The notes below the pieces were generated by a model. The model was not told the DNA's origin and searched no databases. It saw only the letters and a list, made by a program, of their open reading frames with translations. From positions 4,081,656 through 4,145,655 of the forward strand of contig NC_057753.1 of the NCBI RefSeq assembly GCF_004010195.1: a DNA stretch of 64,000 nucleotides. The letters run 5' to 3'. The number at the start of each line of letters is the position of its first letter. Position 1 is the first letter of the stretch. Positions 18,984-58,380 of this stretch are shown here, one piece after another. The position numbers were made by a program, and so were the translations under genes. Source of the DNA: Chiloscyllium plagiosum. Taxonomy: Eukaryota.

Positions 18984-19894
18984 TCATTTTTTAAACATTT
19001 CAGCAAATAAGTTCAATGGATATGTCACACCTTTTTTTATCTCATCTCTGATTTTACTCTGGGTCCCAGCATAAATAAACGGATTGATGCAGGAACTCAA
19101 TAACTGAAGCATGTATCCACTTTGTTGGACAATAAATATGGACTTACTGGCATCAGAAACAGAGGAAAACGGAATATTCGCAATTCGCACATAAATGATT
19201 GTGACAAAGTACAACAAATACAAAAGGATGAAGCTTCCCGAGATGCCAAAGAGTAAAACAATCGACTTTCTTCGCTTCTCCATCTCTGGATCACTCACAT
19301 TCTCTCCATTACTATGCATCCGGAGTCTCGTGCGGGCTCTATTGGCTGCAACAATATGTCTGACAGTCAAAGCATTAAGCAGTATAATCAGAATGAATGG
19401 AAGACACGGAGTTACAATGGAACGAATCCAGTCATAGGCAGCCCATTCTGGTGTTGTATAATATTCTATTTTATGAGAACAGAACCGGGGTGTATTATCG
19501 ATTATGTATACAGGTTCATATGCAAAATATGTGGAGATGTTTTTTAGGCAGGACAGTGCTGACACAATTCCGATCACCCACGATGCCACCTTCTCAGTGC
19601 AATATTTTAATTTCAACTTTTGGCAACAAATGGCCACAAATCGATCAAAAGTAAACGCGACTGTTAACCAGACAGAACTGTCAATGACTGCAAAATTTAT
19701 AGAATTGCGAACACTGCATACTGGTGTGAGAGATAGGAAACTCAATCGAAAATAAATGCCAGCAATCCGGTTTAATATCACGACTGTGACCATGACCAGG
19801 AGATCTGCCATTGCCATTGACACAAGGTAATATGTGATACATCTAGAGAGTCCACATTTTCTTCGGGATAGAATCACAATCACTGCCAGGTTAG
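18984..19894 (-). CDS. Orphan class A GPCR gene A, coding exon 2 (rest of TM1 to C-terminus; full protein 326 aa)
   Basis: Acceptor tttctctttattgcag|CTAAC (AG at 19896-19895). Open frame to stop at 18984; 70+911=981 nt, in frame. Motifs: MAMADLLV (TM2), TFDRFVAIC (DRY-like), TM3 and ECL2 Cys, NPFIY (NPxxY). Confidence 0.93.
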
Positions 19895-21036
19895 CTGCAA
19901 TAAAGAGAAAGATATTTATGAAGTTATTGTCATCGATCTCCTCAGAACAGTGAAAGGACTTTCAGCCCATTGAGTCTGCATTGCTAAACAAAACTTAATT
20001 ATTCAAATGTCATTTTCCAACACTTGATTCTTAGCTCGTAAGTGCACATCGTTTTTTTAATAAAAAATGTTAGGAGGCTGCCGCCCTTATAGGCAATGGA
20101 TTTTACATTCCTACCACCATGCTCGCCACTTTATCTGCCTGCCTTGTTGCATTAAGAGACAAGAGCACTTGTACCCTAAGGAGTCTCTGATATTCAGTAA
20201 TTCCCAGGGTTCTACCATTTATCATGCTTTCTCTTGTCTTGTATTTTCGTCTGCTCAAGTACATCAAATGACATGCGATTTTAATGTATTTACCACTGAC
20301 CAGAATATCTGACCTGTCTTTCTATGTTGTCCTATAATCATTTGGCATCTTCCTCACTATTTATGACACCATCAATTTTTGTATCATTGGTCAACTTGGT
20401 GACCGACAGTCCAAATTTCAGGTCTAAATCGTTTCCGGGTACCACAAACAGCAATCCCCCCCCCCCCCCACACACACACAGATGGTCAAGTAGCTCCACT
20501 GGACACAAGTTGCCAATCACAAACACAACCATCGAACACCATCCTTGGTTTCTTCCTTCTTAAGCCAATTTTGGATTCAATATCTAAACGTTTCATGGAT
20601 CCCTTGGGCTCTTGACTTTGCTTTCAGTCTACCATGTGGAATTTTATCAAGCGTCTTGCTTAAGTCCAGGGAGACTACAACGAATATGTGACCTTATCGA
20701 CACAACTGGTTGTCTCTTCACAAAAGTCAATCAAATTGATCAGACATGATCTCACTCAAAGAAAACCATGTTTGCTGTTCTTGATAAATCCACATCTTCC
20801 CAAGTACAGAGCAGGTATATCCCTCAGAATTGCTACTGATATTTCCACCGCACTGAGGGTAGACTGTTTGGCTTTCAGTTTTCTTGTTCGTACATTGCTC
20901 CTTTCTTGACTAATAATACGGCATTGGCTCTTATCCTGTCTTCTGACGGCTCTACTGTAGCCAGAGAAGACTTGCAAATTATGGCTAACGCCCCTATTTC
21001 TTCCTTTGGCGGATTCAATAGTCTGGATATATTTTA

Positions 21037-21178
21037 GGTGAACGTGAGGACTGCAGATGCTGGAGATCAGTGTCAAAAAGTGTGGCGCTGATGAAGGGCT
21101 TCTGCCAGAAACGTGGACTCTTGTGCTCCTGGAATGCAGCCTGACCTGCTGTACTTTTCAAGCGGCACACATTTGGAC
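21037..21178. mobile_element. Short Penelope-derived insert with hammerhead-like remnant
   Basis: CTGATGAAGGGCTTCTGCCAGAAAC at 21088; 15-bp TSD tctggata(t/c)atttta at 21022-21036 and 21179-21193. Confidence 0.75.
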
Positions 21179-21255
21179 TCTGGATACATTTTATCCCGCT
21201 CAGAAGAATTATCTCCTTTTAAGCTCACTGCTTATTTCTATACCCACATTGTCCC

Positions 21256-21513
21256 TTTAATTTGTGAACACTGACACAAAGTATGGATTTAGAACTCTCC
21301 CTGTGGCTTCCAGCTCCGTACAAAAAATTACAATTGTCTTCCATCGTGGGACATGTTCTTTCCCTCGTTATCATCTCATCTTTTATTTAATTTGTGAACA
21401 CTGACACAAAGTATGGATTTAGAACTCTCCCTATGGCTTCCAGCTCCGTACAAAAAATTACAATTGTCTTCCATAGTGGGACATGTTCTTTCCCTCGTTA
21501 TCATCTCATCTTT
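21256..21513. repeat. Tandem duplication, period 130 bp
   Basis: 21256-21383 and 21386-21513 match with 2 substitutions. Confidence 0.95.
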
Positions 21514-23365
21514 ATGTACGTGCATAATGACTAGACATTTTATTTTATTTGCCAATATTTTTTCATGCCCTCCTTTCTGTCTTTATTATTTTGTTATCAC
21601 CTTGCACAGTCTATACTCCTCTAGAATTTACGCTGTTTTGAGCTTCGACATCTCCCATAGCTTGCTTTTTCTTTCTCTTCATTCAATTCTGTGCATTGTT
21701 TGGTGTTGTGTTCCCACAATTTGCTGGACCAAACTCTCCTTTGATTTGAGCATGTTGGCCCTCTGCTCTCTGAATTCTTCCTGAAAGCGTCTCACAGATT
21801 CATATAAAATTATCTGTTCAAAGTTCACTCTTGCCGAACCATGAGCGTCCTGAGCGCTGCTCCTCCGTCAGGTGAAGCCGAAGGAGCAACGCCCCCAAAG
21901 CTTCTGATTTAGAATAAACCTGATGAACTATAACTTGGAATCGTGTGGACATGTCCACCCGAGTCAAACACCGGCACCTCCACATCATTGCTGAATCTTG
22001 ACTTATCTTGTTAAAATTAGCCTTCCTTCTTGTTTAGAAATTTGACGTCAGGTTCATTCCTACCTTTTTTCCATAATGATCTTGAATCTAACGGAGTTGT
22101 GATCAGTATTTGCAGAATGTGCATCCAAACGTTCCATGGCCAAAGAATTATGTCCACTGCAATCCCCACGAAGGTCTTTCTATGACTTGAGAATCAGCCC
22201 TACATGCTTTTAAAGTATTCCATTCCCTTGATAACCTTTTACCATATAATGACTCTAATTAACGCTGTGAAAGTTGAAATGTTCTACTATCACTACCTGT
22301 TACCTTTACAGTTCTCTTCCATCTTATTTGCTGTGCATTTCTCCCGAACTGTCAGGGGGTCCATGGTTCAACCCCAACAATGTGACTGCCTCATTTCGGT
22401 TTCTAAGTTCTGCACATGTGTCTTCACTTGAGAAGCCTCCTAAAATTTCAATCCTCCGAACTGCTCTAATTGGTTCTCTGATCAATATTGTGACGTTCAC
22501 TTGACATTTCCACCAGACCCTGTTTCGCCTGAAGACCCTGCATCCGGAAAGCTTTCAATACTGACCCTCTTTCAATCATGTTTCAGTGAATGCAATTGCA
22601 TCATGCCCCGAATTTAAATGTGCGCCTTCAAATAATCTGCCACGCTCGTGAGACTCCTTGCATAAAAATAATACAATGCCATCTGACGCCTAATTACTAT
22701 TTTTTTTACTCCCTTGTTGCATCTTCAAAGTTTATTTGTTCACCAGTCGTTTCTGAACGTGCTGTCTGGATTGCAAAGCTATACCAAGTTTAAACCTTCC
22801 CGAACAGCACATGCAAACATCCTTACAAGGATGTGGGTACTTTTTCAGGTTAGGTGCAATACACCCACCAACTACAGGTCTCCACGCCACCCACTCCTGG
22901 CACCCAAAGCAATCTAAGATCCTAAAAATATTAATCACGCATTTCTACATCAGCACTCCAGCTAAGCATTCATCTGGGATAAACCCTTTCTTTCTATACT
23001 CACGGGGTAATTCAGAGATTACTATTTTAAAAGTCTTTTTCTTTAATCTACTTCCTTGCTCCCTAAATTCTACATGCAAGACATCATCGCTTTTGCTTAG
23101 CTATGTCGTTGGTACCAATAGGACCACGATCACTGTCTGATTTACCTTCCACTACAGAATGCTCTGCAGCTTTCCAGTGATATCCACGACTCTATCACCG
23201 GGAAGGTAATCTCCGTCCTTAATCTCTATCTGTTTCCCTCAAAACTGTAGACTCTAGATGACTCTGTCCTCCTCTTCTTCCTGTCTTGTGCAGTAGACCA
23301 TGGTGCCATGAAGTTGACTCCAATGCTTTCCCCTGTACATTCATCTCCCCCAACAATGTCCAAAT

Positions 23366-24135
23366 CTATTAGAATGGGAGATAGAACACAGAACATGGAA
23401 CAATACAGAGCAAAACAGGCCCTTCGGCCCTCGAATTTGCGCCGACTTGTGAACGGATCTAAGCCGATCCCCCTACACAATCCCATCATCAGCCATATAC
23501 TTATCCAAGGACTGTTTAAATGCCCTTAATGTGGCCGAGTTATCTACATTGGCAAGCAGGGCATTCCAAGCCTTTACCACTCTCTGAGTAAAGAACCTGC
23601 CTCTGGCAAGTGTCTTAAAAATTTCACCCCTTAATTTGCTGCTATGGCCCTCGTACAAGCCAACGTCATCATCCTAGGAAAAAGGCTCTCACTACCCACC
23701 CTATCTAATCCTCTGATCAACTTGTATGTCTCTATTAAATCCCCTCTTAGCTTTCTTCTCTCCATTGAGAACAGATCCAGGTCCCTCAGCCATTCCTCAT
23801 AAGACCTTGCCTCTAGACTAGGCAGCATCCTGGTAAATCTCCTCTGCATCTTTTCCAATGCTTCCACATCATTCCTGTAATTGGACGACCAGAACTGTAC
23901 ACAATATCCCACGTGAGGCTGCAATAGCGTTTTGTACAGTTGCAGCATGACATCACGTCTCTGGAACTCAGTCCCTCTACCCAGAAAACCTAACCCACTG
24001 TATGCCTTCTTCACAGCACTATGAACCTGGGTGACAACTTTCAGGGATGTATATACATGGACATCAAGATCCCTCTGCACATCGACACTACCAAGAATCT
24101 TTCCATTGATCCAATATTCTGCTTTCCTGTTATTC
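23366..24135 (-). mobile_element. CR1 3' fragment (same subfamily as 16655-17616)
   Basis: ORF 23631..24191 VQRDLDVHV...LYKTLLQPHVGYCVQFWS...RKLRGDLIETYK. Confidence 0.9.
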
Positions 24136-26404
24136 AAACAAGGATGAGCACAAGAATCTCTTGACTTCTGCAACTCGACCCTGGTGACCATTCGGGTCCA
24201 TTTTTGGGTGTTCCACCGTGAATTGACTGGATGATAGATGCGTTAGCCAGGAGCTGCAAGTGGACACAATAGCTGCACACATGCTGTGAAGACCATCACT
24301 TCTCATATTTACCACATAGCACAGGAGAATATCATGAATGCAAGCTCTCCTGCAGCGATTTACTTTAAGTCCACTCGAAAGGAGTAAATAAGAATATTAT
24401 GAAATTACTTCTCATGCTCTGTGTCCTTACGCCCTTACCGTACTGAATTTTCATTCAAATCACGAATCAACCCTCATGCCACTTCTTTGTGATGCCAATG
24501 CTCGATTTATCTTCAAAATGATCAGGCCCCTGAAGCTGCTGCTGTTAAACTAGAACTTCCCTATTTCTGCTCAGTTGAAGTTTTAGTGTTGCGCCTGGAT
24601 CCTGACCTCGGATCCTGGCTCGGTCTAAATGTTCAGCTGAACCTGAAGGATGGTACATGACAAACGATAAACCACAAAAACCTCATTAACTATGAACTAG
24701 TATAAAACACGTAAAGTCTGTTGTCGTTTTCACTGCATTTCCCAAAATCGCATAAATACAGTATTACCCTGCCATGCTCACTCAGGACGTGCTATTTTTA
24801 TTGCTTTCGTGAAAGTTGACATGGACAGAACATGATTTTGAGGTGCCGGTGTTGGACTGGGGTGAATAAAGTTAAGAATCACGCAACATCAGATTATAGT
24901 CCAACAGGTTTAGCTGGAAGCTCCAAAAGCTAGTGCTTCCAAATAAACCTGTTGGCCTATAACCTAGTGTTCTGTGATTTGTAATTTTGGACAGAACGTG
25001 TTGGTGATAAGAACACTGCTGAGTCGGCTTCAAAAAGCAGCCTCCCCACCACCCATACCCCCTTGCCCTGGATTTTTGCATAAAATTGAAAATTGTAGTC
25101 GTGAATCTAAGCTCAGAATACACATCCTTTACGCTATTAACAACTGTAGATTATCCCCTTCACTGTTCTCCAAGTCAATAGTAAAATATTTGGATGGCAT
25201 AACAAAGTAAACTGGTCTGATACAGTTGATGGAGGAGAAAAAAGAACAAACTAAAGGAAGTTAAGTGAAACAAAATCGAAAACATTGAAACCAAATAACT
25301 GTGAAGAAGCCACGCTTGCGAGCAGAAACTAAAAAAGGGGATAAGGTGTTTCTTTTCAATTAGCTAATGCGCAATTAACGTGCCTTTGAAAAGTCTGCAT
25401 TTTGCTCGCACAAGAAATGCCCTAAAGAGAAGGGGCATTAGTCTTCTTGCCCCTTTGAGGAAGATATATTTTTACGATACAATGGCAAGTCAAAATTCTT
25501 CAGCGGACCTGCAGCTTAAACCACAGATTAAAACTTTCGTTTATCATCATCGTCATAATTGCAATCCCTAATATTGCCCCTTCAATATATTGTTTATTTA
25601 ATTAAGTTCAGTTCAGCGTTATTAAAAGAAAAATAATCCTTTCAATGAACGAGCCATTTCAGGTAATCATTTTGTAACTGGGAAAATCAGTGGTGAAATG
25701 AATCTACCTATCCAAGCTAACTAAAATCCAACAGTGCACCCACCCGCGTTGGCAATAATAGTTTGATATTTCACCTGCTCTGAAATAATGCTGCTAGATC
25801 AGTGTCTCTGCACAGTTCAAATACAATGATGTCAAGGTATCTTATTGATTTTCCACCCAAAACATATTTCTTAAGAGTGCAATCGATTTGAAATTACACT
25901 GTGAGTGTAGTACCCAAGTCAAACACAGTAACAGTACTGACACAATAGAATTACTTCCAGATCGTTATTGGGCAAATGGTCGAGTTAAAACAATGAATGT
26001 AAGTCTGTTACAATAAGTTTGTCTAAATTTAACGGTGACCAATTCTACCGATAATATGAGAAACAAACAGCACATCAAGAGGTGAAATGACAATTCCAAA
26101 TAAGACAGGTTCCACCATTAATATCGCCAGATTATGTTCGTAGCTGAAATGCATTACCATGATACAATGTTGAATTAATACTGTTGCTGCTACTGTATAT
26201 TGTAAGTTATGATAAATAGCAAAGTTTTTTTTATTCCAGTGAAACGAAATGTCTTAAATTGGTGAGTCACAGCATTTTATTGAATACAATTGGAGACGGA
26301 AGAACTATAATATAGAGAAGAAGAGCAAAAGAAATATCTTCTGTAAATGTAAACTTGAAGTACATAGATACGAAATAATGACAACACTAATTTGAATAAT
26401 TTAC

Positions 26405-26474
26405 CTGGAACTCCGATAGCAGCTAGGATAGGATAGTAAATGGCAAACACCAGACCTATTGGTAGTCCATGCAT
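26405..26474 (-). CDS. Orphan class A GPCR gene A (GPR139/GPR142-like), coding exon 1 (MHGLPIGLVFAIYYPILAAIGVP + 1 nt)
   Basis: ATG at 26474, 70 nt, ends CCAG|GTAAAT (GT donor at 26404-26403). The phase-1 G joins CT at the start of exon 2 to give Ala, producing TM1 ...GVPANLAVIVIL. 19/23 aa identical to the exon at 58225-58294. Confidence 0.9.
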
Positions 26475-26524: not shown

Positions 26525-26562
26525 CATTTGTACCTGATGTCAGGCCCCTGAGAGACAATTAG
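26525..26562 (-). promoter_or_regulatory. Putative proximal promoter cassette of gene A: homeodomain TAATTG + O/E(EBF)-like TCTCAGGGGC + CTGACA + TATA-like TACAAAT
   Basis: Minus strand reads ctTAATTG-like cTAATTGtcTCTCAGGGGcCTGACAtcaggTACAAATg; aligns without gaps to the gene B upstream cassette at nearly the same distance from the ATG. Confidence 0.5.
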
Positions 26563-30280: not shown

Positions 30281-30282
30281 TT

Positions 30283-40468: not shown

Positions 40469-40474
40469 TTTATT
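40469..40474 (-). terminator. Candidate polyadenylation signal AATAAA for gene B
   Basis: About 110 nt downstream of the stop, similar spacing to gene A. Motif only. Confidence 0.35.
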
Positions 40475-42029: not shown

Positions 42030-42525
42030 GTTACTGTAATTGGAGTTCTGGTCACCGCATCATACGCAGGATACAGAAGCATTGGAAAGGGTGCAAAATA
42101 TGCTGTCTGGTATGGAGGGAAGGTCTTATGCGGAAAGCCTGAGGGTTTTGAGGCTGTTTCGTTCGAGATAAGAAGGTTATGTGGAGACTTAGTAGAGATA
42201 TACAACATGATCAGAGGAGTAGATAGGGTGGGCAGTGAGAACCTTTTTCTTCAGATGGTGATGACTCGCACGAGGAACATAGCTTTAAATTGAGGGGTAA
42301 CAGACATAGGACAGATGTCAGAGGTAGGTTCTTTACTCAAAGGGTAGTAAGGCGTGGAATGCCCTGCCTGTAACAGTCGTGGACTCTCCAACATAAAAGG
42401 ACATTTAAATGGTCATTGGGTAATTATGTGAATGATAATGGAATAGTGTAGGATAGATGTGTTTCAGATTGGTTTCACAGGTCGAGGACCGAAGGGCCTG
42501 TACCATGATATATGTTCTATGTTCT
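42030..42525 (+). mobile_element. CR1 3' fragment in gene B intron
   Basis: Similar to 17100-17616; tail atgttctatgttct. Confidence 0.8.
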
Positions 42526-42766
42526 GCCTTCTGTAGGTTACTCTGCAGACTTGTGAGCCACAACGATTCGGAAGAAACTTGTCTGTCACTAACGCTGAAA
42601 ATAAGGGTCTGAGAACAGGCACTGCACTGGAGTAAGTTCAGACGCCTATGAATGGATGCACTGACGAGCCATTGTCCGTGATGTGTAAATGTGTGGAATG
42701 TGTTGAGCAAATTTGTTAAGTTGCTCGATCAAATAAGCTCAAAAGATTGTGCGGCTGTGCAGATAT

Positions 42767-43582
42767 TGGTATGACAAGTAGACAAAACCCAAATTAACTA
42801 AACCAAACAGCCAGAAAAGCTCACCTCGTCTCATAATCTGTTAAAATATGAGTGACAGAGAACTCCCAAATTCCACCGTTTAAAGAAAATAACATCATTT
42901 TTTTCTAATTCGAAAAGTGAAAATTAAACAAAAACAATTTATTAATCTAAGGCCCACCCCTTCTCTTCGCTGCTGCCTGTCCAACTCCAACTCTCAAAAA
43001 ATGATATGTGGTTCCAATAAGACACTTCTTTAAATTATATTAACTTAATCTAAAAACCACACAGTTTCTGTTTTCTTCTGTGTCTTCAGTCTTCCAGCTG
43101 CTGATCTCCCCGCGTGGTCTTCGTTCTTTTGACTGCGTGTAGGTTTCACATGAAAACGTACCTTTGAAGTTGAGTGTTTTCTAATGTCTTTGCGAGCAAG
43201 GTATTATATTGGCAGTTGGCTACCTGGCTCTACGGTAGTTGCTTTCCATTTAATTTTCAATATACTGGATTGATATACCCAACATGATGCTTTAATGTCT
43301 TATCATTTGGTTGGTTTCCAGATTTTGCAACAATCAAATTCAAACTCCATTGGCTCTAGTATTGCCGGCATAATTTGAAGCAGTTGGTTAATTTTGAATT
43401 GCTGTCAACATAACAACCACAACTCAAGTATCCATTTCACAATCAACTGTGCCATATTTTCAATTTTCCAGTACATTCTGAGGCTGCCACCATGTTGTAT
43501 CCAGTGGTGTTTGTAATCTCTCAGTTCATTACGGCATTCAGTCTCACTTAAAGGTATAGTACACTCTTTCAACTTCATAACA
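42767..43582. mobile_element. Solo LTR (Gypsy-type), about 816 bp
   Basis: Termini TGGTATGA...TCATAACA (TG..CA, imperfect inverted ends), flanked by 4-bp TSD atat at 42763-42766 and 43583-43586. Confidence 0.65.
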
Positions 43583-43904
43583 ATATTGGAAAACTATATC
43601 AAAAGAAATACCTCACTGCATGTCCAATATGTTTGAATGCTTGCGATTTTTCCAGCTTATCGAGCAAACTTGCAACCATGTTCGAATACCTGGCGTACAG
43701 CAAAGATAACAATATTCTGTGTTCAGGGCAATTATTCAGAGAAATATTGGGCTTCATTTCAGAATTTTGTTTTAAGGCGTTAGGAGATTATTCTACATTC
43801 GAATTGCCTCGAAGAACAAGAAAAGTAAAAAAAAAGAGAGAACGTTTTGGAGAAAGCAGGTCTGGCAGCATTTTTGGAAGGATCAGAAGGGTCAACAGTT
43901 CAAG

Positions 43905-45995
43905 TCATAGTCATGGAGTTAGACAGCAAGGAATCAGATACTTCACTCCAATTCGTGCCCAAACACCAGATAACCTGAATTAGTCTGGTCCCATTTGCCA
44001 GTATTTGGCCTATATCTGTCGTAACCCTTCCCATTCATATACCCATTCAGATGCCTTGTAATTGTTGTAATTGTATCAGACTCATCCCCTTGCTCCGGTA
44101 AAAATAATGACTGCAGATGCTGGAAACCAGATTCTGGATTACTGGTGCTGGAAGAGCACAACAGTTCAGACAGCATCCGAGTAGCCGTAAAATTGGCGTT
44201 TCGGGCAAAAGCCCTTCATCAGGAATACAGGCAGAGAGCCTGAAGGGTGGAGAGATAAGTGAGAGGAGGGTGGGGGATGCCCTGGGATTGAAGTGTTCCG
44301 AGGTGGAAGATGAGGCGTTCTTCCTCCAGGCGTCTAGTGGTGAGGGAGCGGCGGTGAAGGAGACCCAGGACCTCCATGTCCTCGGCAGAGTGGGAGAGGG
44401 AGTTGAAATGTTGGGCGACAGGGTGGTGTGGTTGATTGGTGCGGGTGTCCCAGAGATGTTCCCTAAAGCACTCTGCTAGAAGGCATCCAGTCTCGCCAAG
44501 ATAGAGGAGACCGCATCGGGAGCAACGGATACAATAAATGATATTGGTGGATGTGCGGGTAAAACGTTGACTGATGTGGAAGGCTCCTTTAGGGCCTTGG
44601 GTGGAGATGAGGGAGGAGTTGTGGGCACAGGTTTTGCAATTCCTGTGGTGGCAGGGGAAGGTGCTAGGATGGAAGGGTGGGTTGTCGAGGGGCATGGACC
44701 TGACCATGTAGTCAAGGAGGGAACATTCTTTCCAGAAGGCGGAAAGGGGTGGGGAGGGAAATATATCCCTGGTTTGAGGTGGCAGAAATGTCGGCGGGTG
44801 ATTTGGTTTATGCGAAGGTTGGTAGGGTGGAAGGTGAGCAGCAGGGGCGGTAGCTCATTCCATGCGCACAACTCCCTCTGTCTGAAAAAAAACCCAGGTT
44901 ACTTTTAAGTAAGAGGAATGGTTAGTAACCTTGCAGATAAGAGCACAATTGGTTGTGTAGTAGGCAATGAAGAGGGTTATTCTCGCATCTTAACTCCCTA
45001 GTTTTGGACTCCCCTATCGCGAGGAAAAGGCCCTTTCCATGAATTGCACTATTTTATAAACTTCTATAAGGTCACCTCTGAAGCCCCCAACACGCAAGGG
45101 AAAACCACAGTTTATTCTGCCTCTCCCTATAACTCAAAACTTCCAATCCTGACAACAGCGTTATTAATCTTTTCACACTTCCAAGTTCAATAACATATTT
45201 CCTAAAGTAGGGAGACTAGAATTTAATGCAGTATTCTATAAATGGCCTAACCAATGTCCCGTATAGCTGCAAAATAACATTCCAAAAGCTATATCAATGC
45301 ATTCTCAATAAAGGCAAGTTATCTAAATGCCTTCTTCACTATCTTCTTCACTGCACTCTATTTGCAATTCCAGTTTCAAGCAACTCTGGATTTGTACCAC
45401 AAGGTCTCTTTGTACGGTAACACTCCCCAGGACTCTTCCATAACATACATACGTCCTGTCGTGATTCGCCTTAATAAAATGTAAGAGCTCAGATTTATCT
45501 CAATTAAACTCCAGCTGCAACGTCTCAGTCCATTCACCCATCTCATCAAGGCCGCACTATACCCTGAGCTAACTCTCTTCACTATCCAACAAGTTTGGTG
45601 TCATCGACAAACTTACGAACCATTCCTTTTATAATTTACATTCAAATCATTTATATAATTAACAAAAAGCAGTGAACCCAGCACCGATCCTTATGGCTCA
45701 CGACTGGTCACAGGCCTTCAGTCCGAAATGCAAACCTCCAACACTACCATCTGTCGCCTACCTTCAAACCCGTGTAACATCAAAATGGCTAGCTTTCTCT
45801 GGATTTCATGTGATTTAACCTTGCTAACCAGTCTATCATGTGGAATCTTTTCGAATGCCTTGCTGATATCCACACAGACAACTTCCACTGCTCTGCCTTC
45901 GTCAATTTTCTTTGTCAGTCCTTCGAAAAAAAACGACCTAGTTAGTACGACACGATTTCCCACGCGCAAATTCGTATTGACTATTTCTAATCAGT
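43905..45995 (-). mobile_element. CR1 RT/3' fragments interrupted by Penelope
   Basis: CR1 tail at 43905-44095 resumes at about 44851; IDEGRAVEVVCVDISKAFEKIPHDRL at about 45850. Confidence 0.75.
44101..44850 (-). mobile_element. Penelope-like element 3' part with GIY-YIG endonuclease and terminal repeat
   Basis: ORF 44219..44707: FPCHHRNCKTC, NIIYCIRCSRCGLLYLGETG, FREHL, PVAQHFNS; hammerhead-like motif at 44195-44226. Confidence 0.9.
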
Positions 45996-48945
45996 CATTG
46001 CAAAAGGGAAAAGGTGATGAAGTGGCATTGCCATCTAAAGCTGTAGGAAATTAGCACAATTTTTAGAAAGGATATTGGTCCTGAGAATGTGGAGTCTGTA
46101 TGGGTAGAGTTGAGAATTACCAAAGGGCAAAAAAACGGGTTGGTGCCATATATAGACTTACAAACAGCAGTGGTGATGTTAGGCATGGCATTAAATGGGA
46201 AATTAGCAATGCATGTGATAAGGTAATATCTGTGATCATGGGTGATTTTGATCTGCAGATAGTTTGGGCTAATCAAATTAGGCACAATGCCATCGAGGAG
46301 GAATTACTGGAGTGTACACAGGATGGTTTTCTTAACCAATATGCCGAGAAACTAACGAGAGAGCAGTCCATCTTGACTGGGGTTTGTGCAATGATAAAGA
46401 AATCATTGCCAATATAGCTGTGCCAGACCCCTTGGGAATGAGGATAACATGACAGAATGTTTTATCAAGATGGAGAGTGAGGTAGTTGATCCAGAGACTA
46501 GGGTGTTGAATCTTACTAAAGAAAACTAAGAGGATATGAAGCGTGCATTGTCTTTGATTGATTGGGGAGAGCTATGTAAAGGGATGACAGTGGATATACA
46601 ATAGCAAAACTTCAATGAACATATGGGGTAACTGCAACAATTCTTATTCCTGTCAGGCATAAATACAAAATGGGTAAGATGTCCAATCCATGGTTCACAA
46701 ATGAAACTGGAGACAGTTTCTGATCCGATGAAGATGCATATAGAATGACCAAGAAAAACGTAATAGGCCTGAGGACTGGGAGCATATTAGAATGCAGCAA
46801 AGAAGGACCAAGGGATTGATTAAGTACGGGAAAATACAATAAGAAAGTAAACTTGTCGGAATATAAAGATTGACACGAAGACTTGCTATAGGCACATGAA
46901 GAGAAAGATTGTTGAAGATAAATGTAGGTCCCCTACAAGTAGAAATGAGGACAAAGAAATGACTGAGTAACTGAATACATACTTGGGTTCTGTCTTCACA
47001 AAAAAAGAAATACAAATCAAATAAAAATGTTGGCGAATTGAAAATTTACTGAGAGGGAAGAACTGACTGAGATCAATATTAGCAGTGAAATGGTGCTTGG
47101 AAAACTGAGGGGATTGAGGGTGGATAAATCTCCAGGGCTTGATCATCTTCATCCCAGAGTACTTAACGAAGCGGCTCCAGAAAAAAATGGATGCATTGGT
47201 GTTCATCTTCTGAATTTCTATAAACTCTGGTTCAATACCTGCAGATTGGAGGGTAGCTAATTTGACTCCAATATTCAAAAAGAGAGGTAGAGGTAAACCA
47301 GGGAATTGTAGACAAGTAGGCCTAACATTTGTAGTGTGGGAAGTTATGGAGTCCATTATCGTTAGAGTTGAGCATTTGAAAAAGCAGTCGTAGGATCGGA
47401 CAGTGTCAGTATGAATTCATGAAGGAGAAACCACTGTGAACAAGTCTTATGGAATTCTATGAAGATGTAACTCGTAGACATTATGGGGGGGGGGGGGGGG
47501 CAGTCGATGTGGAATATTTGGACTTTCTGAAAGCGTTTGTCAAAGACCCAAATAAGATATATTTGTTTAAGACTTTCTTTGGGGACGGATAGAAAACTGG
47601 TTAGATTAGATTTCCTAAAGTGTGGAAACAGGCCCTTAGGCTCAACAATTCCACACCGACCCTCCAAAGAGTAACCCACCCAGACCCATTTCCCTCTGAC
47701 AAGTGCACCTAACACTATGGGCAGTTTAGCGTAGCCAATTCACCTAACTTGCACATCTTTGGACTGTGGGAGGAAATTGAAACACCTGGAGAAAACCCAC
47801 GCAGACATGGAGAGAATGTGCAAACTCCACACAGACAGTTGCCCGAGGCTTGCAGAGAGAAAACAAAAGAGTAGGAATTAATGGTCCTTTTCAAATTGGC
47901 AGGTTGTATCTAGTGGGGTACCACAGGTATCTGTGCTAGGACCTCAGCTGTTCACCGTATATATATATATACATATACAAATGAGTTGGATGAGGGAACA
48001 AAATATACCATCTTAACGTTTGCAGATGATAACAAGTTGAATGGGAGGGTGCACTGTGACGAGAATATAGAGATAATTAAGCATGGTCTGTACAGTTTGA
48101 GTGTGTGGCCAAATCAGTGGCAGGGGCAGTATAATTCAGATAAATGTGAGGTTATTCACTTTGGAAGCAACGACAAGAGGGCACATTATCATCTGAATGG
48201 CCATAAATTGATAGAGGAAAGTGTATAGTGGAACCTGGGTGTCCTTGTGCACCGCTCGCTAAAGGTAAGCATGCAGGTGCAGCAGGCATTAAAGAAGGCA
48301 AATGGCACATTGGTGAAGTTTTGAGTACAGGAGCAGGTAGTGTTGAAGCAGTTACACAGGGCCTTGGTGAGGCCAGACTTAGAATATTTTGTGCAGTTTT
48401 GGTCTCCATTCCTGAGGACGGAAGCTCTTGTTCTTGAGGGAGTGCAGTGAAGGTTCACCAGGATGATTCCAGTAACTGCGGGTCTGACATATGAGGAGAG
48501 ATTGACTTGATTCTGAGTATTTTCGAATGGAGTTCAGACGAATGGGAGGTGGGAGGATCTCATAAAGACTTATCAAATTTTAACAGAACTACACAGTATA
48601 AATGCAGTAAGGATATTCCAAATGGTAGGTGTGTCTGGAACAATGGGTCTCGGTCTGAGAATTTGTGGTAGATCATTTACAATGGAGATCAGGAGACATT
48701 TCTTCACCCAAAGAGTAGTGAGCTTGTGGAAATCACTACCACAGGAAACAGTTGATGCTGAAACATTGAAGGTGTCCAAAAGTGGCGAGATACAGCACTT
48801 GGGACAAATGGGACATTAGGATTAGAGGAGAGAGCAGGATTAGGTTATTGAGTCGGACAGTCGGCCATGATCGGGATAAATGGCGGAGCAGGCTGGAAGG
48901 AGTGGATGCCTCCTCCTGCTCCTGTATTCCATGTTTCTATGCTGC
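45995..48945 (+). mobile_element. Degenerate CR1 ORF2 (EN to 3' tail) with SINE inserted at about 47600-47850 (-)
   Basis: VIMGDFD, GFLNQY, ILTFADDNKLNG, FFTQRVVSLWKSLP. Confidence 0.85.
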
Positions 48946-49729
48946 ATTTCAAATAGATTTAAAGTACTTGCCTATCACCATCATAATAGTCCTGATGCCA
49001 AATTCGAACTTAACTTAGACATCGGTTCTCTTCTTTCCCATAACTGTTGGAAAACAAATAGAATTTTGATCCAGTCCGATATAACTTTTCAACAGGATGT
49101 CAACAGGATGTCAACAGAACGACAGGAATTCTTTGAATGAATCAGATCGGACTCAAACCAGTAGCAGAGTTTGACGCCCCACGCATTTGATCACAGTTAA
49201 TAAGCTTCTCTAGGAGTTTCTGCGTTTATCTCAGATTTCTGGTTTTTGGAGTATTTCATGTTAATTAACGCTGGAAAAGTACCAAATCAACATTGATTTT
49301 GAAGATAACACGAGAAGGTGAGGATGTATCAAAACTAATTAGTTTCATAATAGAACAGACGAAGAAACATAAAAATAGAGAGAACAGATCTCATTAATTC
49401 AATCGTCCCAGTAAAGAACAGGATCAAAATAATTTAAAAGGCCGACTATGAAGACGTACATGAATTGTTTCAAGGAATTCCTGATAACAACTTATTACAG
49501 TCCAATGAAGAAGGAGGTATTGCAGGACCTGACTCCAATTTTAAGTTTGTCAGCAAAAAGCTGATGCTAATCTTAGAATCGTAAAAGAATACAATTCTAG
49601 CCTCATAACTATTGACGCACTGTTGGAAAGATGATAAAGTAGTTTAATTTTTTTGGTTACAAATGTAAAGTGCATTACCTCCGCAGGGTGAAGATAAAAC
49701 TGTCACAAGTAAATAAACAAAGATTGACA

Positions 49730-49900
49730 AGGCGAAAGTAAGGACTGTAGATGCTAGAGATCAGAGTCAAGATTACAGTGGTGCTGGAAAAGCCCTTCAT
49801 CCTGATGAATGGTTCCTGCCTGAAAAATCTATTTTCCTGCCCTCGGATGCTGTCTGACCGGCTGTACTTTTTCAGCACCACTCTAACCTTGACTCTAATT
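49730..49900. mobile_element. Short Penelope-derived insert with inverted arms
   Basis: Perfect 11-bp TSD aaagattgaca at 49719-49729 and 49901-49911; degenerate cctgatgaa...gaaa core. Confidence 0.75.
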
Positions 49901-50029
49901 AAAGATTGACAGCCAAGTGTTTTAAATCGCAATGGCTTCTCTATTGTTGTTAAATAAATTACTTTGGTGGAATCGAATTAAAGTTTCGCATATTGAAAAT
50001 TAAACACAAAGATGGAAGCGTACTGTTAG

Positions 50030-53000
50030 GATCACGTTTGCTGGGCTCCGCGCTGCAACACCGACCCCACAGAGCCGGGACACTTTATTGTGAGTAAGAA
50101 ACACAGTAAAGGAGTGAGAAACTTGGAAAAACTCTGCTTACCTATGTCCTTGAAGCTGGAAAATATCGAATAAAGCAGGAAGCTCACCCAGGGCTGGGGC
50201 TTATGGCCCAGCCCTCTGAACCAGCAGGCTTGCTTACTCACTGGCTCCTGTTTGAGGCACTGGCCAAATCTCGTGAGGCCCTGTGGAGGCAGATCCAGGA
50301 AAATAAAATCGAGGAGAAGTTGGCTCCTGCATCTGCAATGCTGCAAGACCTGGGAAAAAGGAACGATGAACTCCAGCGTTGCGCTGAAGGGGTTGAGACT
50401 GATTCCTCCAAGAGCTGGATTGTAGCCCTGGAAACACAAGTCCGTGGTCTGTTGAATCTGGTAGATGATCTCGAAAACAAGGGCAGAAGAAAGAACCAGC
50501 ACATTGTTGGCATACTGGCGTGGATGGAAGGTGAGCGCCAGTGGAGTTCTTCGAGAAATGGTCCCCAGAGTTCCTTGATTTGGAGGTTGAGAAGTGAATG
50601 ATAACAATTGAAAGAACGCAGCAGATTGTGGCACGAAAGCCCAGAGCGTATGAACGCCCACGCCCTTTATTGGTGAGGTTTCATCATTATAATGAGAAGC
50701 AGATGTTCATGAACGACTCTCGAACTCAGGGGAGGGATTCAAGGACGTTGGTGTGGTGACTCCATGGTCATGTTTTTTTTCAAGACATCTCAGCGGCAGT
50801 GGTCCAGAAAAGGAAATCCTACATTGGCGTCAACAAGAGATTGAGACAGCTTAGGATCCAGTATTCTTTAAGATACCCAGCGGTGCTTTGGATCAATCTT
50901 AATTCATCCATACATTTGTTCAACTCGCCAGAGAAAGTGAAGAACTTTGTGGACACATTGACTTTAGTTGAACGGCCGAGTAGACGCTGAGGACGGAGCT
51001 GTTCGAGTTTGCTCTCCTTTAAAAAGGACTTGGTGAAGTCGCCTTTTTTCGTAATAAGTTGTGTAAAATGATGGCTGGGCTGGATAGAGTATTTATCTTT
51101 AATCTCGAATTTATGTTAAGGGATGAGTGACATATTTATTTGTAGTTTGCTTGTTTATAGTACTTACCTTGCTCTTGTGTGTTTGTTTTCTCTACCAGGT
51201 GGTTTGTGCATGTGGCACGACCCTAGCTGGTAGGAGTTAAGAGAGCGGTTGGGATGGTTAGTAGCCTTGTACGATGTGTAAGTGCCCCCTTTGAATCAGG
51301 GGGTAGATTCCTCCAATCAGTGCCTTTGACGAGTTTTAGCTGTAGTTATTTTAGTCTGTGTAGATTTTGGGTTTTGTGGATTCTTTTGCATTAAAGCTCA
51401 GGGATATGAGTTCAGGTTCTTCCTCTCTGGAGTCTCTATGGTGCGGTAAAAGGTTATGGCTAAGGATGTCAAGATTAGAGTGGTACTGGAAAAGCACAGC
51501 AGGTCAGGCAGCCTTCGAGGAACAGGAAAATCGACGTTTCGGCAAAAGCCCTTCATCAGGAATTCCTCAGGGATAGGAAGTTTATTGAATTCTTTTCTAC
51601 TGAGTTCAGGTTTTTTTTTTAGATATTAATTCAGGCTTTGGGAAAGAGCTAAATTCTCTGCTAGGCGGTTGGTTATTGCCTGTTCAGCCGGTAAGAAGCG
51701 ACAGATGGGTGAGCAGTAACACTTGCTCGAGATGTGTTTGAAAGTAGCTGAAAAGGTATATTTTGACAGGCCCTCGCTGGTTAAACTGCAGAGGAAAACG
51801 GCGCTTCGGTCTACTCTGAACTCCATGCTTACATTTGCAAGTCAAAGGCTGAGCATGGGGATAAGCAGACAAGTACCTACGATTCTAAATGGATTAATGC
51901 AACATTCCGGAAATTTTACTCTGAATTACGTCAACCTGAAAGCTGTGAGCCGTGGGCGGGTTAGAATTGAGTCTTTTTAAAAATAATTTGGATGTTCTTG
52001 GAGTGGTTCCTGAACAGGAATCTCTCCTCAAAGCCCCATTGTCAGAGCAGGAGGTGCCGGAGGCTATAAGGCAGCTCTAGAATGGGAAGGCGGCGGGTTC
52101 TGATCGGCTCCCCAGTGAGTTCTATAGATAATTTGTAATTTTATTGTCAAGGCCAATACTTAGTATGTTTCATGACCCACATAGTTTTGACCTCCTCCCA
52201 CCACCTCGAAGAGAAGTGAACATGTCTCTTGTTCGTAAAAAAGGAAGGACTCGGAGGACTGTGCCCCCTACAGACCCATTTCAAAATCCTATCCAAGAAT
52301 CTAGCATTAAGGCTAGGAATGGTACTGTCCGCCATCATTATGGAGGACCAGACGGGGTTCATAAAAGGTTGCAGATCGACTCATAATGTCAGGAGATTAT
52401 TTAACATGATCCAAGTATGTCAACTATGGTCATTACAAGGACTGGTGATCCCCATAGGTGCGGAATAAGCATTTGACAGGGTTGAGTGGCCATATCTTTT
52501 TCATACTTTGAAACGGTTTGGCCTGGGAAAGACCTTCATCAGGTGGGTGGAGGTTTTGTATACTGATCCTCTTGCCACAGTCGTCACCCATGATGGCCGA
52601 TCAAGCAGCTTTAATATTGGAAGGGGCAGTCGACAGGGCTGACCCTTATCACCATTGTTTTTCACATTGGTGATCGAACTGCTGGTGAACGCAATATGCA
52701 GGGATACCAATATAACTGCTCCAGAAGTAGGGGCCAAGTCCCATAAGATCGCGCTGTATGCAGATAACGTTCTTGTCTTCTTATCAAACCCAACAGTCTC
52801 AGTGCCACGCCTGATACAATGCATCGGTCTATTTTGTGGCTTCTCGGGTTTTAAGTTAGATTTGGCGAAGTCAGATGTCATGCCCATGGGTGGACTCCCA
52901 AGAGTGCTTGATCCTGAGGGTGGATCTCGGTTTCTTTTAGATGGTTGCAGGAGGGCTTTATATATTTAGGGATATTTATTAATCCAATTTCTGATTGGCT

Positions 53001-54750
53001 ATTTAAAGCCAGTTATGACCATCTATTCGACAGAATCAAGCAGGATCTTCATAGATGGGAGGCACTTGGATTGGTTGGATAGCCCTCAATAAAATGAACA
53101 TTGTGCCCCGCCTGTTGTATGCTATGTGAATGGTTCCTCTACCTTTTACTAAGCAAATATTTAGAAGACTGAATGGCTGGTTTAATTCTTTTATCTGGTA
53201 TCTGAAGCGGTCCTAACTAAATTGACTAAATTGCAGTTACCTTACAGACTGGGAAGAGAGGGCCTCCGGGATTTCAAAAAATATCAGTTAAGCTTGTTGC
53301 TATCTTACGTGAATGATTGGGCCCGGGTGGGAGAACCTCACTTACTTTAGTTGGACATCTCAGGCAAGATGCTCCCTTATTAGCCTGATGTTCTGAGACA
53401 AAATGGAAACAGTTAAGGAATATTGCCATAGCTTAATAGTCATCAATAATACCAAGGTGCGGTGGGTAATGCGTCAGAGTGAAATCAGTATTGCCAAACC
53501 ATCATTTGTGACACCCATAGTTGGCATACCGGCCTTTCAGTCAGGATGATGGACTGTGGGTTTAAACTATGGGCACCTAGGGGCGTGTCTTGCATCGGTG
53601 ATTTATTCAAAGGGGGCATATTGATGTCCTTTGACTCATGGGCTCAGAAACATGAATTGCCCAATAGAAATCTCTTTCGTTTGTTTCAAATCAGAAACTT
53701 TATATAAAATGGAGACCACGCTACTCACTAAGCTTCATAGGTCCGACATGAAGAAGATAGTGTTTAGTGCTGCGGATACTTTACCTGTTAGCAACACTTA
53801 TCATCTATTGGGAGAGGGTTCCTCGGATGAAACTAAACGGCTCTGTAAGGTGTGGGAGAGGGAGTTGGACGCTGAGATCTCTTCTGAAATATGGGAGGAT
53901 ATCTGGGAAAAAGCAAGAAGGATCTCGATTTTCATCAGGATTCACACTTTTCAATTGAAGATTCTCCACAGGTTCCATCTGGTCGCAGACCGCATTGCTA
54001 ACTATCAAGTGGGAGCATCTCCAATGTGTCCTAAACGCAAAATGAGTATGGATACGCTTACTTATTGTCTTTTGTCCGTTACAGACTGCTGGCATACTGG
54101 AGTGCTGTGGTGGGTGAATTAAAGAAGGCCATGGGGACAGAGGTCGAGATGGACCCAGTATCTCTTCTTCTTCGCTTTGTTAATTCACTTTCATTCGATA
54201 CAAACACACACAAAAAAAAGGCTTTTCAGTTTACTCACTTTGTGAGCCAGAATGAGCATTTTAGTAAGTTGGATGTCAGAAAATCCCACAGGGCTGGCGG
54301 GCTGTTGGAAGCTCGTCATGCAGCACATCCCCTTGGACATTCTTACGAGTATGATGCACCACAAACTGAGCATGTCCATAAGATGTGGCAGCCCTTTTTG
54401 CACTACCTGCGTACAGACTTGTCCGCCATACGATAAGAGCCTTTATCTAACCATGGCAATTCTATGAAATGAATCTGGTATCTAGAGGGGAGGAACTACA
54501 AACATATGAATATGTATAAACTTATACACTCGATGATGGAGGGCTTTTGCTTTGTTTTGCTGAGTTGTGTTATGGTTATTATCATTACTTTCATTGTTGA
54601 GATTTCTCATTTTTAGCTTAGTTATTAGTTATTATTTATTTGTGTAATTAGCAGACTTGCTTTTTAAATATTAGTTTGAATTGTTTGGTTTTGACTTTGT
54701 TGTAATATTCAAAGGAAGAAATCCTTCTTTTAAAAAGTATTAAAAAAAGA
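50030..54750 (+). mobile_element. L1/Tx1-clade LINE, degenerate (ORF1, ORF2 RT and C-terminal region; EN mostly missing)
   Basis: ORF1 LVDDLENKGRRKN, RPLLVRFHHY, IQYSLRYPA; ORF2 IIMEDQTGFIKG, HKIALYADNVLVFL, QLKILHR, CPK; A-rich end at about 54730-54750. Confidence 0.85.
51527..51566 (-). ncRNA. Hammerhead ribozyme-like motif (best-preserved core) in Penelope fragment 51472-51566 nested in L1
   Basis: ggaattc-CTGATGA-AGGGCttttGCC-GAAA-CG-TC-gattttcc: core boxes, palindromic ACGT at helix III, GUC site, partial helix I. Confidence 0.6.
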
Positions 54751-55534
54751 TATACACAACGAAACTCAGAGTTCTTTGGATGACAAGAGACTCAGGAACA
54801 GTTAAAGTCAGAAGTCAGGTTAATCTTTCAGCGAGACCAATATTGAGGATATCCAAAACAAAGCACAGTGAAATCAAAATGCAAATTACATTTTACATAG
54901 ATATGTACCAGAAACCTTCCTTTAATAGTCTAATCAGAGAAAAATAGCGTCAGTGAAGAACCAAGAAGAAAAATGATATCAAGAGACAATGACCTCACTA
55001 GAAACAATATCTACATTTTCAATCTGGGTCACCCAATCGGAAGTGACAACATGTCGTTCGTAGAATGTTACGATTTCATGGACTGTCCTCAGCTTCACCA
55101 ATCACCTGAGGTTTGGAGAGCCTCAGGTTGAACCACCACCGATCATCTGTCCAATCATGACAGAGGAGTTCCACAGCAACCTTTCATTTTAGGTTGTTTT
55201 TATTACTGCACGATGGGTAGACTACGGCACGATTAACACAACCTATTTGTGCTTTTCAGAACCTGATCGCTATAACATGTTCATGTTTCAGTGTAATTAT
55301 ATAAAAAAAATCTATTTATGATTTTGACAGAAGTGGAGCAATTCAACAACGGATTTTGAGAACATGATTAGTCAAAGGTGAAAGAAATCCATTATATATT
55401 TTTTAAAGGAATTCATTAATCATCTAATCGTTGCAAAGTATCGATATTTTGGCAGGTGTTTGGTCTTTTTTATGCCTGTTGATCTCAGGTAAGGGAACAT
55501 GAAAAAGATTGTAGTGAACAAAGCGGTTTGTCAG

Positions 55535-56226
55535 GGTAAAAACAAGGACTGCAGATGCTGGAAACCAGAGTCTAGATTAGAGTGGTGCTGGAAAAGCACA
55601 GCAGGTCAGGCAATAAATGAGAGGGGGTGGGGCTGGGGAGAAAGTAGCATAGAGTACAATAGGTAAATGGGGGTGGGGATGGATGTGATAGGTCAGAGAG
55701 GAGGGTGGGGGAATGATACCCGCACCAATCAACCTTACCGCCCTGTTGTCCAACATTTCAACTCCCCCTCCAACTCTGCCGAGGACATGCAGTTCCTGGG
55801 CCTCCTTCACCGCCGCTTCCTCCCCATCCGACGCCTGGACGAAGAACGCCTCATCCTCTGCCTTGGAACACTTCAACCCCATGGCATCAATGTAGATTTC
55901 ACCAGTTTCCGCATTTCCCATTCCCCCACCTTACCCCAGCTCCAGCCTTCCAGTTCATCTCCGCCCTCATGACCTGTCCTACCTGCCTAACTTTCTTTCC
56001 ACCTATCCACTCCACCCTCCTCTCTGACCTATCACCTCCATTCCCACCCCCATTCACCTATTGTACACTATGCTACTTTCTTCCCACCCCATCCCCATCT
56101 CATTTATCTCTCCACTGTAGGCACCCTGCCTCTGATGCTGATGAAGGGCTTTTGCCGGAAATGTCGATTTTCCTGCTCCTCCGACGTTGCCTGACCTGCT
56201 ATGCTTTTCCAGCACCATTCTAATCT
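55535..56226. mobile_element. Penelope-derived insert with inverted terminal arms and distal GIY-YIG fragment
   Basis: DTRTNQPYRPVVQHFNSPS; hammerhead-like motif at 56138-56168; 15-bp TSD aaagcgg(t/c)ttgtcag at 55520-55534 and 56227-56241. Confidence 0.85.
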
Positions 56227-58224
56227 AAAGCGGCTTGTCAGTCAGCCCTGCTATTGGGAGTTTGAATGCAATCAATTCATGTGATACCAGTTACCATATA
56301 CATCGCATAGCATTGATTTCAGTTACTCAATTATTTGTGATTTTTGAAATTACTCTGAATATGTTTGACACCACTATGGTCTCAGGTATGACATTTAGCA
56401 TCCTAACCAGCCATTGAATAGAAAGGTGCTTCAACGTGATCTCTTCTTCTTAAGTAAACACATTAACTTTGTATCCTATAATTTTGACTCATCTGTCAAT
56501 ACGAAGTATCTATTTAAACCAGCTCTGCCAAGAACTCTCCTTGTTGTCAATTTTACGAACAAGATTTGGATCAGTTCCTCTTTAATCTCCAGGACGACAA
56601 ACATCAGTTTCTATAAACGACGTCTGCCACAGAAAGTCTCATATACGTGAAACTACTACAAATACGTTCAACATGCATTCTAAATCTTCCACACCCTTGT
56701 AAAGTTATGAGGCCCTAAAGTTGATCATAATGCAACACTTGGATCAGAAATAAACTGTTTAAAAGAACAATCCATCCAAGAAACTGATCAATAACTACCA
56801 TTATCATGGCAAAGAAAGAGATGAAATACGAGTTCACATGAATGGGACTTTAGTAAAATCAGTACTGTCACATTGAAACTACATTTGTCCATTTGACTGT
56901 TAACTTATGTGTTTTCATCACTGCAAAAAATAAATCCCAGTGCAAAGATTTTTTGGATTTGCTGATACTTGCTGATTTATCCTTAAAGCCTTTAGTAAAG
57001 AACAATGCATGTGCACAGGTGTACACATCTCTCGCAGAAAGCCTCATCCAAGGAATCTTTCCACTCACATTTAGAAGTGTCCTCCTATGGAACATTTCAC
57101 TCTGCCATTGTAATGATTTTAAGTTCAGTCGGGTTTTCTAACTTCACTCTTTCATTTTAATTTTAATCACAAACAGAATTTCGAATCACTACAAGGGCCA
57201 TACGGTCACTTCGTATTAGTTGACACAGGTTGAATGTTGTACTTTAATGATGCCCTTCTCCTCATTGCATCAAGCACTGTCTTGATTCCTCACTGGACGT
57301 ACTCCTTTCTGATTACATTTTAACTCATTAAATATTTAAGCGTCATTCCATGGTAACTACAGATGATGAACCCAGACTTTTATATTTGTTGCAAATGTGC
57401 CATGCACTCAACTAGCTAATCGTTTTCCTTGGTGCAACAACAGTGTGACACTTCACCCAAATTACTATTGTAATGAACAAAATCAAACTACATTTACGTT
57501 GCCATTACATTTTGATAGGTGACAGATTCTCTCACTTGTTCAGGTCATGGCTCATACTAAAACTGACAGCGTATGCTTGATTCCTGCTCCGTCTCATGTA
57601 CACCTAGAAACTGCATTCTCACGCTATCCCTGAATGTGAAAGGTAATGGAAAAGCAGAGTTAAGCGAAAAAAAAAAGCTGGTGCACTGCAGGCACAGAAT
57701 TAATGCCAACTGCGAATGATGCGAGTGAATGCCTTTGGGCAAAGCACCATGGAAATAGATTGAGAAAGAATCGCAGAGTACAAATGCCAAAAACGATTTG
57801 CATTTATAGCATGAAACGATTAGGGTAAAGCAGCTAAATCGTGCAGTCGTTAAGATCACATTCGATCTTGAATGCAGTACACTAATTAAGTTAAAATGCT
57901 CTGATTAAAAAAAAAAAATTCTAAAATGTACCAGTTAAAAGAGAGGACTAATTTTGTACAAAAAAGGAGAACAATTTGCAAAAGTGTTGAAATTATTCCT
58001 TTGAATGAGCGAAAAAAATGACATTGTGAAGTAGCAGGGTTTGTTTAACCTATTTTTGTAATCAACCTATTCAGAGATATTAGGGCACGCCTCTGGAACA
58101 AGTGGCAATTGAATGAGAGTCTCTCAGTCCAGGGTTAGCGATACTACCACTGCTTCATAAGAATCAGAACACTGATGAGTTAATCGATTACCTTAATACC
58201 TATTAACTAATTTTTATACTTTAC

Positions 58225-58294
58225 CTGGAACGCCAATAGCTGCGAGGACAGGGTAATAAATGGCAAACACCAGACCTGTTGGTACTGCGTGCAT
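58225..58294 (-). CDS. Orphan class A GPCR gene B, coding exon 1 (MHAVPTGLVFAIYYPVLAAIGVP + 1 nt)
   Basis: Read by eye, not in the ORF track. ATG at 58294, 70 nt, CCAG|GTAAAG donor; same length and phase as gene A exon 1. Confidence 0.88.
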
Positions 58295-58342
58295 TTCTGT
58301 CAGAAAATCTGGATGCATTCTGTTTAGAAATACATGTTGGAT

Positions 58343-58380
58343 CTATTTATAATGCGTGTCAGTCTCTTGGGAGTTAATTG
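58343..58380 (-). promoter_or_regulatory. Putative proximal promoter cassette of gene B: CAATTA + TCCCAAGAGA (O/E-like) + CTGACA + TATA box TATAAATAG
   Basis: Minus strand reads CAATTAacTCCCAAGAGACTGACAcgcatTATAAATAG; TATA box begins 57 nt upstream of the ATG. Confidence 0.6.

Follow-up and report, generated by a model that had tools for sequence, protein, structure and literature searches.

Two GPR139-related receptor genes of Chiloscyllium plagiosum belong to a large, clustered receptor family of cartilaginous fishes with a possible chemosensory role

A stretch of 64,000 nucleotides of the bamboo shark Chiloscyllium plagiosum (assembly GCF_004010195.1, contig NC_057753.1, positions 4,081,656 to 4,145,655), referred to here as the window, carries two genes, A and B, for seven-transmembrane (7TM) receptors that are members of a very large family of cartilaginous-fish proteins. 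Both genes are on the minus strand and consist of a first coding exon of 70 nt and a much longer second one, with the following coordinates in the window:

18857..18862, minus strand: first candidate poly(A) signal of gene A, predicted, 122 nt past the stop
18984..19894, minus strand: gene A exon 2, from the end of transmembrane helix 1 (TM1) to the stop, 302 codons, frame from 19892, AG acceptor at 19896-19895
19895..26404, minus strand: gene A intron, 6,510 bp, phase 1, GT..AG, supported by the gap-free match of the spliced product to P0001
26405..26474, minus strand: gene A coding exon 1, with the ATG, the short N-terminus and most of TM1
40469..40474, minus strand: first candidate poly(A) signal of gene B, predicted, 110 nt past the stop
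40584..41503, minus strand: gene B exon 2, 305 codons, frame from 41501
41504..58224, minus strand: gene B intron, 16,721 bp, phase 1, GT..AG, supported by the gap-free match of the spliced product to P0113
58225..58294, minus strand: gene B coding exon 1

The initial annotation of the window, made from its letters alone, had described two complete 7TM genes on one strand with starts about 32 kb apart and about 65% identity without indels, and this description is accurate: the distance from ATG to ATG is 31,820 bp, and the two proteins, of 326 aa (gene A) and 329 aa (gene B), align without gaps and share 211 of 326 residues (64.7%). The introns interrupt the same codon in TM1, and the exon structure is furthermore supported by matches to public shark gene models that run in one block without gaps, with 299 of 325 residues identical (92%) between spliced gene A and the zebra-shark protein P0001 and 272 of 315 (86%) between spliced gene B and the whale-shark protein P0113. 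The same matches would by themselves assign the DNA to a carpet shark or something close to one. The two genes are under purifying selection, with nonsynonymous and synonymous divergences (Nei-Gojobori) of dN 0.25 and dS 0.86 and a dN/dS of about 0.29. An in-frame ATG lies 24 nt upstream of the gene B start (58318-58316) and would add 8 residues, but since the TATA box begins only some 33 nt above it, which puts it near the likely transcription start, it is probably not used. As to the description of the locus as a tandem array, neither a profile search nor nhmmer detected a third copy, a pseudogene or a fragment in the 64-kb window, which by itself therefore shows a pair and not an array. The nine other open reading frames of the window that begin with ATG and reach at least 150 aa are likewise none longer than 233 aa, and none of them has a Pfam match.

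Both genes encode class A (rhodopsin-like) G-protein-coupled receptors (GPCRs). Their exon-2 products score 84 and 78 bits with Pfam 7tm_1 (cut-off 30.5), this being the sole Pfam match of either gene at E<=0.001, both contain the DRF and NPFIY motifs, and an AlphaFold model of gene A exon 2 (pLDDT 85) has the 7TM fold with TM-scores of about 0.7 to peptide and chemokine GPCRs. A fold search with this model was not discriminating, generic peptide and chemokine GPCRs coming out on top. As had been proposed, the genes stand outside the OR, TAAR, V1R and V2R families, and no canonical member of these or of T2R occurs among the 120 best matches described below or among the 60 best solved matches. 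The intracellular half is conserved across the family (D2.50, D3.49-R3.50, P5.50, N7.49 and Y7.53). In the subfamily to which A and B belong, position 6.48 is Y and position 7.50 is P where deeper members have W6.48 (54 of 59) and T7.50 (49 of 59), Q7.42 is nearly fixed in that subfamily (113 of 120), and P6.50 has been lost from most family members (kept in 8 of 59).

A search with gene A exon 2 returned 2,295 protein clusters (90% identity) at E<=1e-10 among 3,888 candidates. Species, names and contigs were counted over the best 120 of these clusters, none of which matches gene A at 100%; 119 are named shark proteins and one is unnamed. The horn shark contributes 74 of the 120, of which 54 are assigned to one contig of 59.5 Mb, and ten whale-shark proteins are likewise assigned to one contig of 11.7 Mb. 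The clustered lineage expansion in cartilaginous fishes that the initial annotation had envisaged from two genes is thus real, and far from the scarcity of paralogues that it had named as contrary evidence, at least 74 distinct members are found in the horn shark. A DNA run with the same species label as the window furthermore yields 103-108 contigs with differing letters at the TM3 motif, a range that fits many paralogues and is not a copy number. At greater depth, a library clustered at 50% identity holds 111 representatives at E<=1e-30, and among 21 deep representatives, a subset of the 55 full-length ones within the clade, 20 carry a shark, skate, ray or chimaera name of their own or of a cluster-mate and one has no species. 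Many subfamilies less than 50% identical to each other have been retained across sharks, rays and a chimaera, and the presence of members in sharks, batoids and a chimaera indicates that the expansion began before the split of chimaeras and elasmobranchs. So far as found here, the family appears from these sequence matches to be present in cartilaginous fishes only. A profile scan of 37 of 64 parts of a set of metagenome contigs gave seven loci (four at 23-24% identity, three short) and no family member.

It had been suspected that such genes might already be annotated automatically as probable GPR139, and indeed 106 of the 120 best matches are named 'probable' or 'putative GPR139', 13 having other automatic names. 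The chondrichthyan RefSeq and UniRef models called 'probable G-protein coupled receptor 139', 'neuropeptides capa receptor-like' and 'GPR15-like' are members of the family, and these names are all automatic. In one bamboo-shark member, the cluster P0169 (XP_072405952.1), a cluster-mate is labelled RING-type domain-containing, possibly a fusion or a mis-joined model. The proteins are thus already catalogued, but their treatment as a family was not found in the literature searched: no published description turned up in a search that covered subscription journals little and left some supplements of shark genome papers outside its range. Term searches found 'GPR' absent from the catshark sensory-genome paper and no mention of sharks in a 2025 review of GPR139, and in a chemosensory review the one match was a reference on another subject.

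The relationships of the family were assessed from trees of 138 sequences (FastTree) and 41 sequences (IQ-TREE), neither of which includes true GPR139. Its monophyly is moderately supported (0.91 in FastTree; 84/73 in IQ-TREE), and it groups most closely with a sister gene that was seen once per species in amphibians and sturgeon (0.96; 99/99), here called the P0223 group (e.g. XP_069092602.1, 'probable GPR139'). Proteins of this group share with the family a short N-terminus and a DPEM..R..S motif before TM6, but are about 33% identical to gene A, form one protein cluster per species (21 group members within 25 matches) and have a conserved pocket with K6.51 and N7.39. This orphan GPCR of frogs, salamanders, caecilians and sturgeon has a near-invariant polar pocket (R2.61, K6.51, K6.55, E6.58, R7.35, N7.39), and no published study of it was found in the literature searched; it would be a good handle on the ancestral ligand. 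The next-closest group, P0222 (e.g. XP_005988539.1, likewise 'probable GPR139'), comprises proteins of sharks, bony fishes, coelacanth, amphibians and reptiles, for the most part with one cluster per species, and resembles the family in its short N-terminus, but is about 31% identical to gene A and has R6.51 in 50 of 50 sequences. No mammal or bird is among its named matches listed, and it is possibly one of the 'GPR210' orphans of an earlier study (PMC6504862). Two of its models are fused to TMEM183A isoforms, hinting at TMEM183A as a genomic neighbour.

GPR139 appears from profile comparison to be the nearest characterised relative with a solved structure. The family profile scores 71.4 bits with GPR139 against 58.5 for the next solved match, and the coelacanth member of the P0222 group, which also ranks GPR139 first (70.4 against 43.9 bits), bridges the family to it. 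Gene A alone, however, gives only 26.7 bits with human GPR139, not above AT2R or CCR7, and since zebrafish and human GPR139 are 70% identical (PMC7318219), genes A and B are distant relatives of GPR139 rather than its orthologues. The 1:1 orthology to a known receptor that the initial annotation had named as contrary evidence is therefore not found with GPR139. Genes A and B share with GPR139 and GPR142 (human GPR139: PDB 7vug, 9m42) the class A fold, two exons and an aromatic residue at 3.33, but their N-terminus is about 19 residues shorter, C3.25 is found in 55 of 59 family members and not in aligned GPR139, and GPR139 is one copy where the family has many.

The binding pocket differs as well. 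Activation of GPR139 requires F109, H187, W241 and N271 (PMC5430874) and in addition R244 at 6x51 (PMC8807744). In the profile alignment and the column table the positions F3x33, H5x43, W6x48, N7x38 and R6.51 are F, R, Y, Y and Y in gene A and Y, L, Y, F and F in gene B, which means that H187, W241, R244 and N271 are replaced in both, with F109 kept in A and changed to Y in B. R6.51 has been described as unique to GPR139 and GPR142 (PMC8807744), but the P0222 group keeps it too (50 of 50), whereas the P0223 group has K in 21 of 21 and the family has F, L, Y or other residues at what is one of its most variable columns. Mean entropy was compared between 34 pocket-facing and 52 other positions of the extracellular half of TM2-7. 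In the 74 horn-shark paralogues the pocket is the more variable (1.12 against 0.74, nominal p=0.005), with an intracellular-half entropy of 0.40 (0.52 over all 120 best matches), while in the single-copy orthologues the direction is reversed, with 0.63 against 1.21 in the P0222 group (n=50, p=0.0005) and 0.23 against 0.64 in the P0223 group (n=21, p=0.00008). This reversal is a stronger point than the p values, and a variable pocket with reversed controls is what diversification of ligands on a shared signalling core predicts. The pattern does not separate sensory from immune function.

Upstream of each start there are furthermore elements that had been taken for an olfactory-type promoter:

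26526..26532, minus strand: TATA-like element TACAAAT of gene A, 58 nt upstream of the ATG, putative in function
26545..26561, minus strand: putative homeodomain and Ebf(O/E)-like composite of gene A, TAATTG T CTCTC AGGGG, -87 from the ATG
58345..58351, minus strand: TATA box TATAAAT of gene B, 57 nt upstream of the ATG, putative in function
58364..58380, minus strand: putative homeodomain and Ebf(O/E)-like composite of gene B, CAATTA A CTCCC AAGAG, -86 from the ATG

The two genes share an upstream block in which the homeodomain core and the Ebf-like site are followed by CTGACA, five bases and the TATA-like element. The pattern YAATTR-N-Y5-R5 occurs twice in the 64 kb with both strands counted, once per promoter and in the same orientation, against 0.32 expected by chance, and the six differences between the two copies all preserve it. 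Spacers of 0 and 2-8 nt give one match in total, which is not at the promoters. The order and spacing are those of the Sfaktiria probe, from a mouse Greek Island enhancer with an Lhx2/Ebf composite, which likewise has a homeodomain core, one base, five pyrimidines and five purines, and a 2-bp insertion impairs binding to this probe (PMC5608512). The olfactory-type motif is thus present, as a putative element, at both genes and nowhere else in the window. The interval delimited in the initial annotation ends at 58380, which is the first base of the gene B motif. An exon-1 pattern search for more promoters in the metagenome contigs gave no match. A 26-bp satellite upstream of the promoter was looked for in the window and is absent.

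The window is otherwise filled with dispersed repeats, which we take to be decayed long interspersed elements (LINEs). A direct repeat of 204 bp (82% identical) at 18702-18905 and 20130-20333 lies on both sides of gene A exon 2, and its copies match only one another within the window. This points to a duplication or crossover event that took place locally, around this exon. Gene A exon 2 is also flanked by inverted repeat copies (16882-17614 and 23390-24135, 81% identical over 747 bp), and the gene A intron contains a recent tandem duplication of 130 bp (98% identical, 21256-21513).

Our best inference, as distinct from a result, is that these receptors probably serve to sense water-borne chemical cues and would most likely be deployed in olfactory neurons. 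As put forward in the initial annotation this reading keeps the support of the expansion, the non-orthology, the pocket, the promoter motif and the automatic names of the relatives, but it loses the argument from the very short N-terminus. Residue 25 is position 1.50 in 78 of the 87 best matches with a locatable motif, and no sequon occurs within the first 25 residues of 83 proteins that start with 'MH', but the single-copy relatives have N-termini of equal length (25-27 residues), so that the shortness is an ancestral trait and does not speak for a sensory role; as a sensory hallmark it was rejected. By analogy, the srw family of nematodes (PF10324) is a precedent for the growth of a chemoreceptor-like repertoire out of neuropeptide receptors: it arose from them by rapid birth-and-death expansion and has been proposed to detect peptides in the environment (PMC2576165). 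Clusters that bear the Srw domain occur among the feature neighbours, but the origin of the shark family is independent and genes A and B have no Srw match at E<=0.001.

Several points besides the N-terminus weigh against a chemosensory role. The list of pocket positions is our own and follows class A numbering, the paralogues are not independent, which makes the pocket p values nominal, the pocket excess is not significant over all 120 best matches (1.25 against 0.96, p=0.083), and genes A and B differ from each other at 15 of 34 pocket positions against 19 of 52 others, a slight excess. The promoter pattern was composed after both promoters had been seen, in two related genes only, and was compared with one mouse probe rather than with a weight matrix; two or more matches anywhere in the window were reached in 6 of 100 shuffles, and the two genes share ancestry. 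Conservation of the promoter block is marginal (23 of 35, reached in 4% of shuffles). Ebf and homeodomain factors are also active in B cells and in many neurons. The mouse composite, moreover, is a mark of distal OR enhancers that is seldom found at OR promoters (PMC5608512), whereas the shark motif belongs to genes that are not ORs and precedes their TATA element by 12 nt. In the catshark, almost every olfactory neuron is a microvillous cell of the TRPC2/Go type (PMC10116579), and the top-50 list of brain and nose transcripts has no GPCR (PMC11979771), which neither supports the proposal nor excludes sparse expression.

Clustered expansion and a variable pocket are equally typical of immune receptor families, and the family might instead be an immune or barrier surveillance repertoire, like the formyl-peptide receptors or MRGPRs, that detects microbial or damage-derived peptides; its members would then be expressed in leukocytes, mast-like cells, skin, gut or somatosensory neurons. 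Ebf1 does act in B cells, but the homeodomain-Ebf spacing is that of the olfactory enhancer probe. When four read runs, one of low depth, were compared over 17900-21200, a single-cell RNA run of unlabelled tissue (about 2% of the run) had 23 reads at position 19620, which might be taken to favour immune expression. They all carry the letter of a paralogue and none matches gene A at this position, however, they are divided between the two strands (7 and 16), and the other run of this single-cell sample has no read in the interval; they may be DNA carry-over and are not used as evidence. On balance we regard an immune or barrier role as unlikely. A largely non-adaptive expansion, in which unequal crossover within clusters rich in retrotransposons multiplies a GPR139-like gene into copies that are mostly redundant or in decay, would suit the repeat-rich window and the 204-bp direct repeat around gene A exon 2, but it is in poor agreement with the dN/dS of 0.29 between A and B, with the close counterpart of each gene in another shark species (92% and 86%), with the many subfamilies kept in sharks, rays and a chimaera, and with variation that lies in the extracellular half (0.74-1.12) rather than the intracellular half (0.40), and we consider it quite improbable. 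More improbable still is that the genes are co-orthologues of GPR139 and GPR142 that act in brain or endocrine tissue as sensors of L-Trp and L-Phe or of melanocortin-type peptides. Among solved structures the family profile does match GPR139 best (71.4 against 58.5 bits), and GPR139 has two exons as genes A and B do (PMC7318219), but the low score of gene A with human GPR139, set against the identity between the human and zebrafish proteins, and the replacement of four residues required in GPR139 speak to the contrary.

If the family is indeed chemosensory, one ancestral GPR139-related receptor would have been duplicated repeatedly in clusters from before the split of chimaeras and sharks. 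The basic residue that had been fixed at 6.51 would have disappeared from the copies, and their pockets would have diverged to cover many ligands, which may be peptides, amino-acid derivatives or other small polar cues, while keeping the G-protein face, so that they may all signal through a shared G protein. Factors of the Lhx2/Emx2 type together with Ebf would then drive each gene in sparse sensory neurons. A further and more specific proposal, which we advance only tentatively and with somewhat more doubt than belief, is that these receptors are a fifth, overlooked olfactory family of chondrichthyans, derived from GPR139-related peptide or amino-acid receptors, outnumbering OR, TAAR, V1R and V2R together, expressed as one gene per neuron and each equipped at its own promoter with the Lhx2/Ebf composite that in mammals belongs to distal OR enhancers.

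The current picture of sharks is one of a well-developed nose served by few receptors, the numbers of OR, TAAR and V1R genes being called 'very low and stable' with 34 V2Rs in the catshark (PMC10116579), and the whale-shark genome paper noting that GPCRs are relatively scarce in cartilaginous fishes (PMC8455134). At least 74 distinct horn-shark members under an automatic GPR139 label are at odds with this picture, whatever their function. If the receptors are expressed in the nose, the account of shark smell changes and an independent origin of vertebrate chemoreceptors is added. Should they indeed form an olfactory family, sharks could no longer be seen as animals whose small repertoire buys sensitivity at the cost of discrimination, and the composite element would date back to the ancestor of jawed vertebrates.

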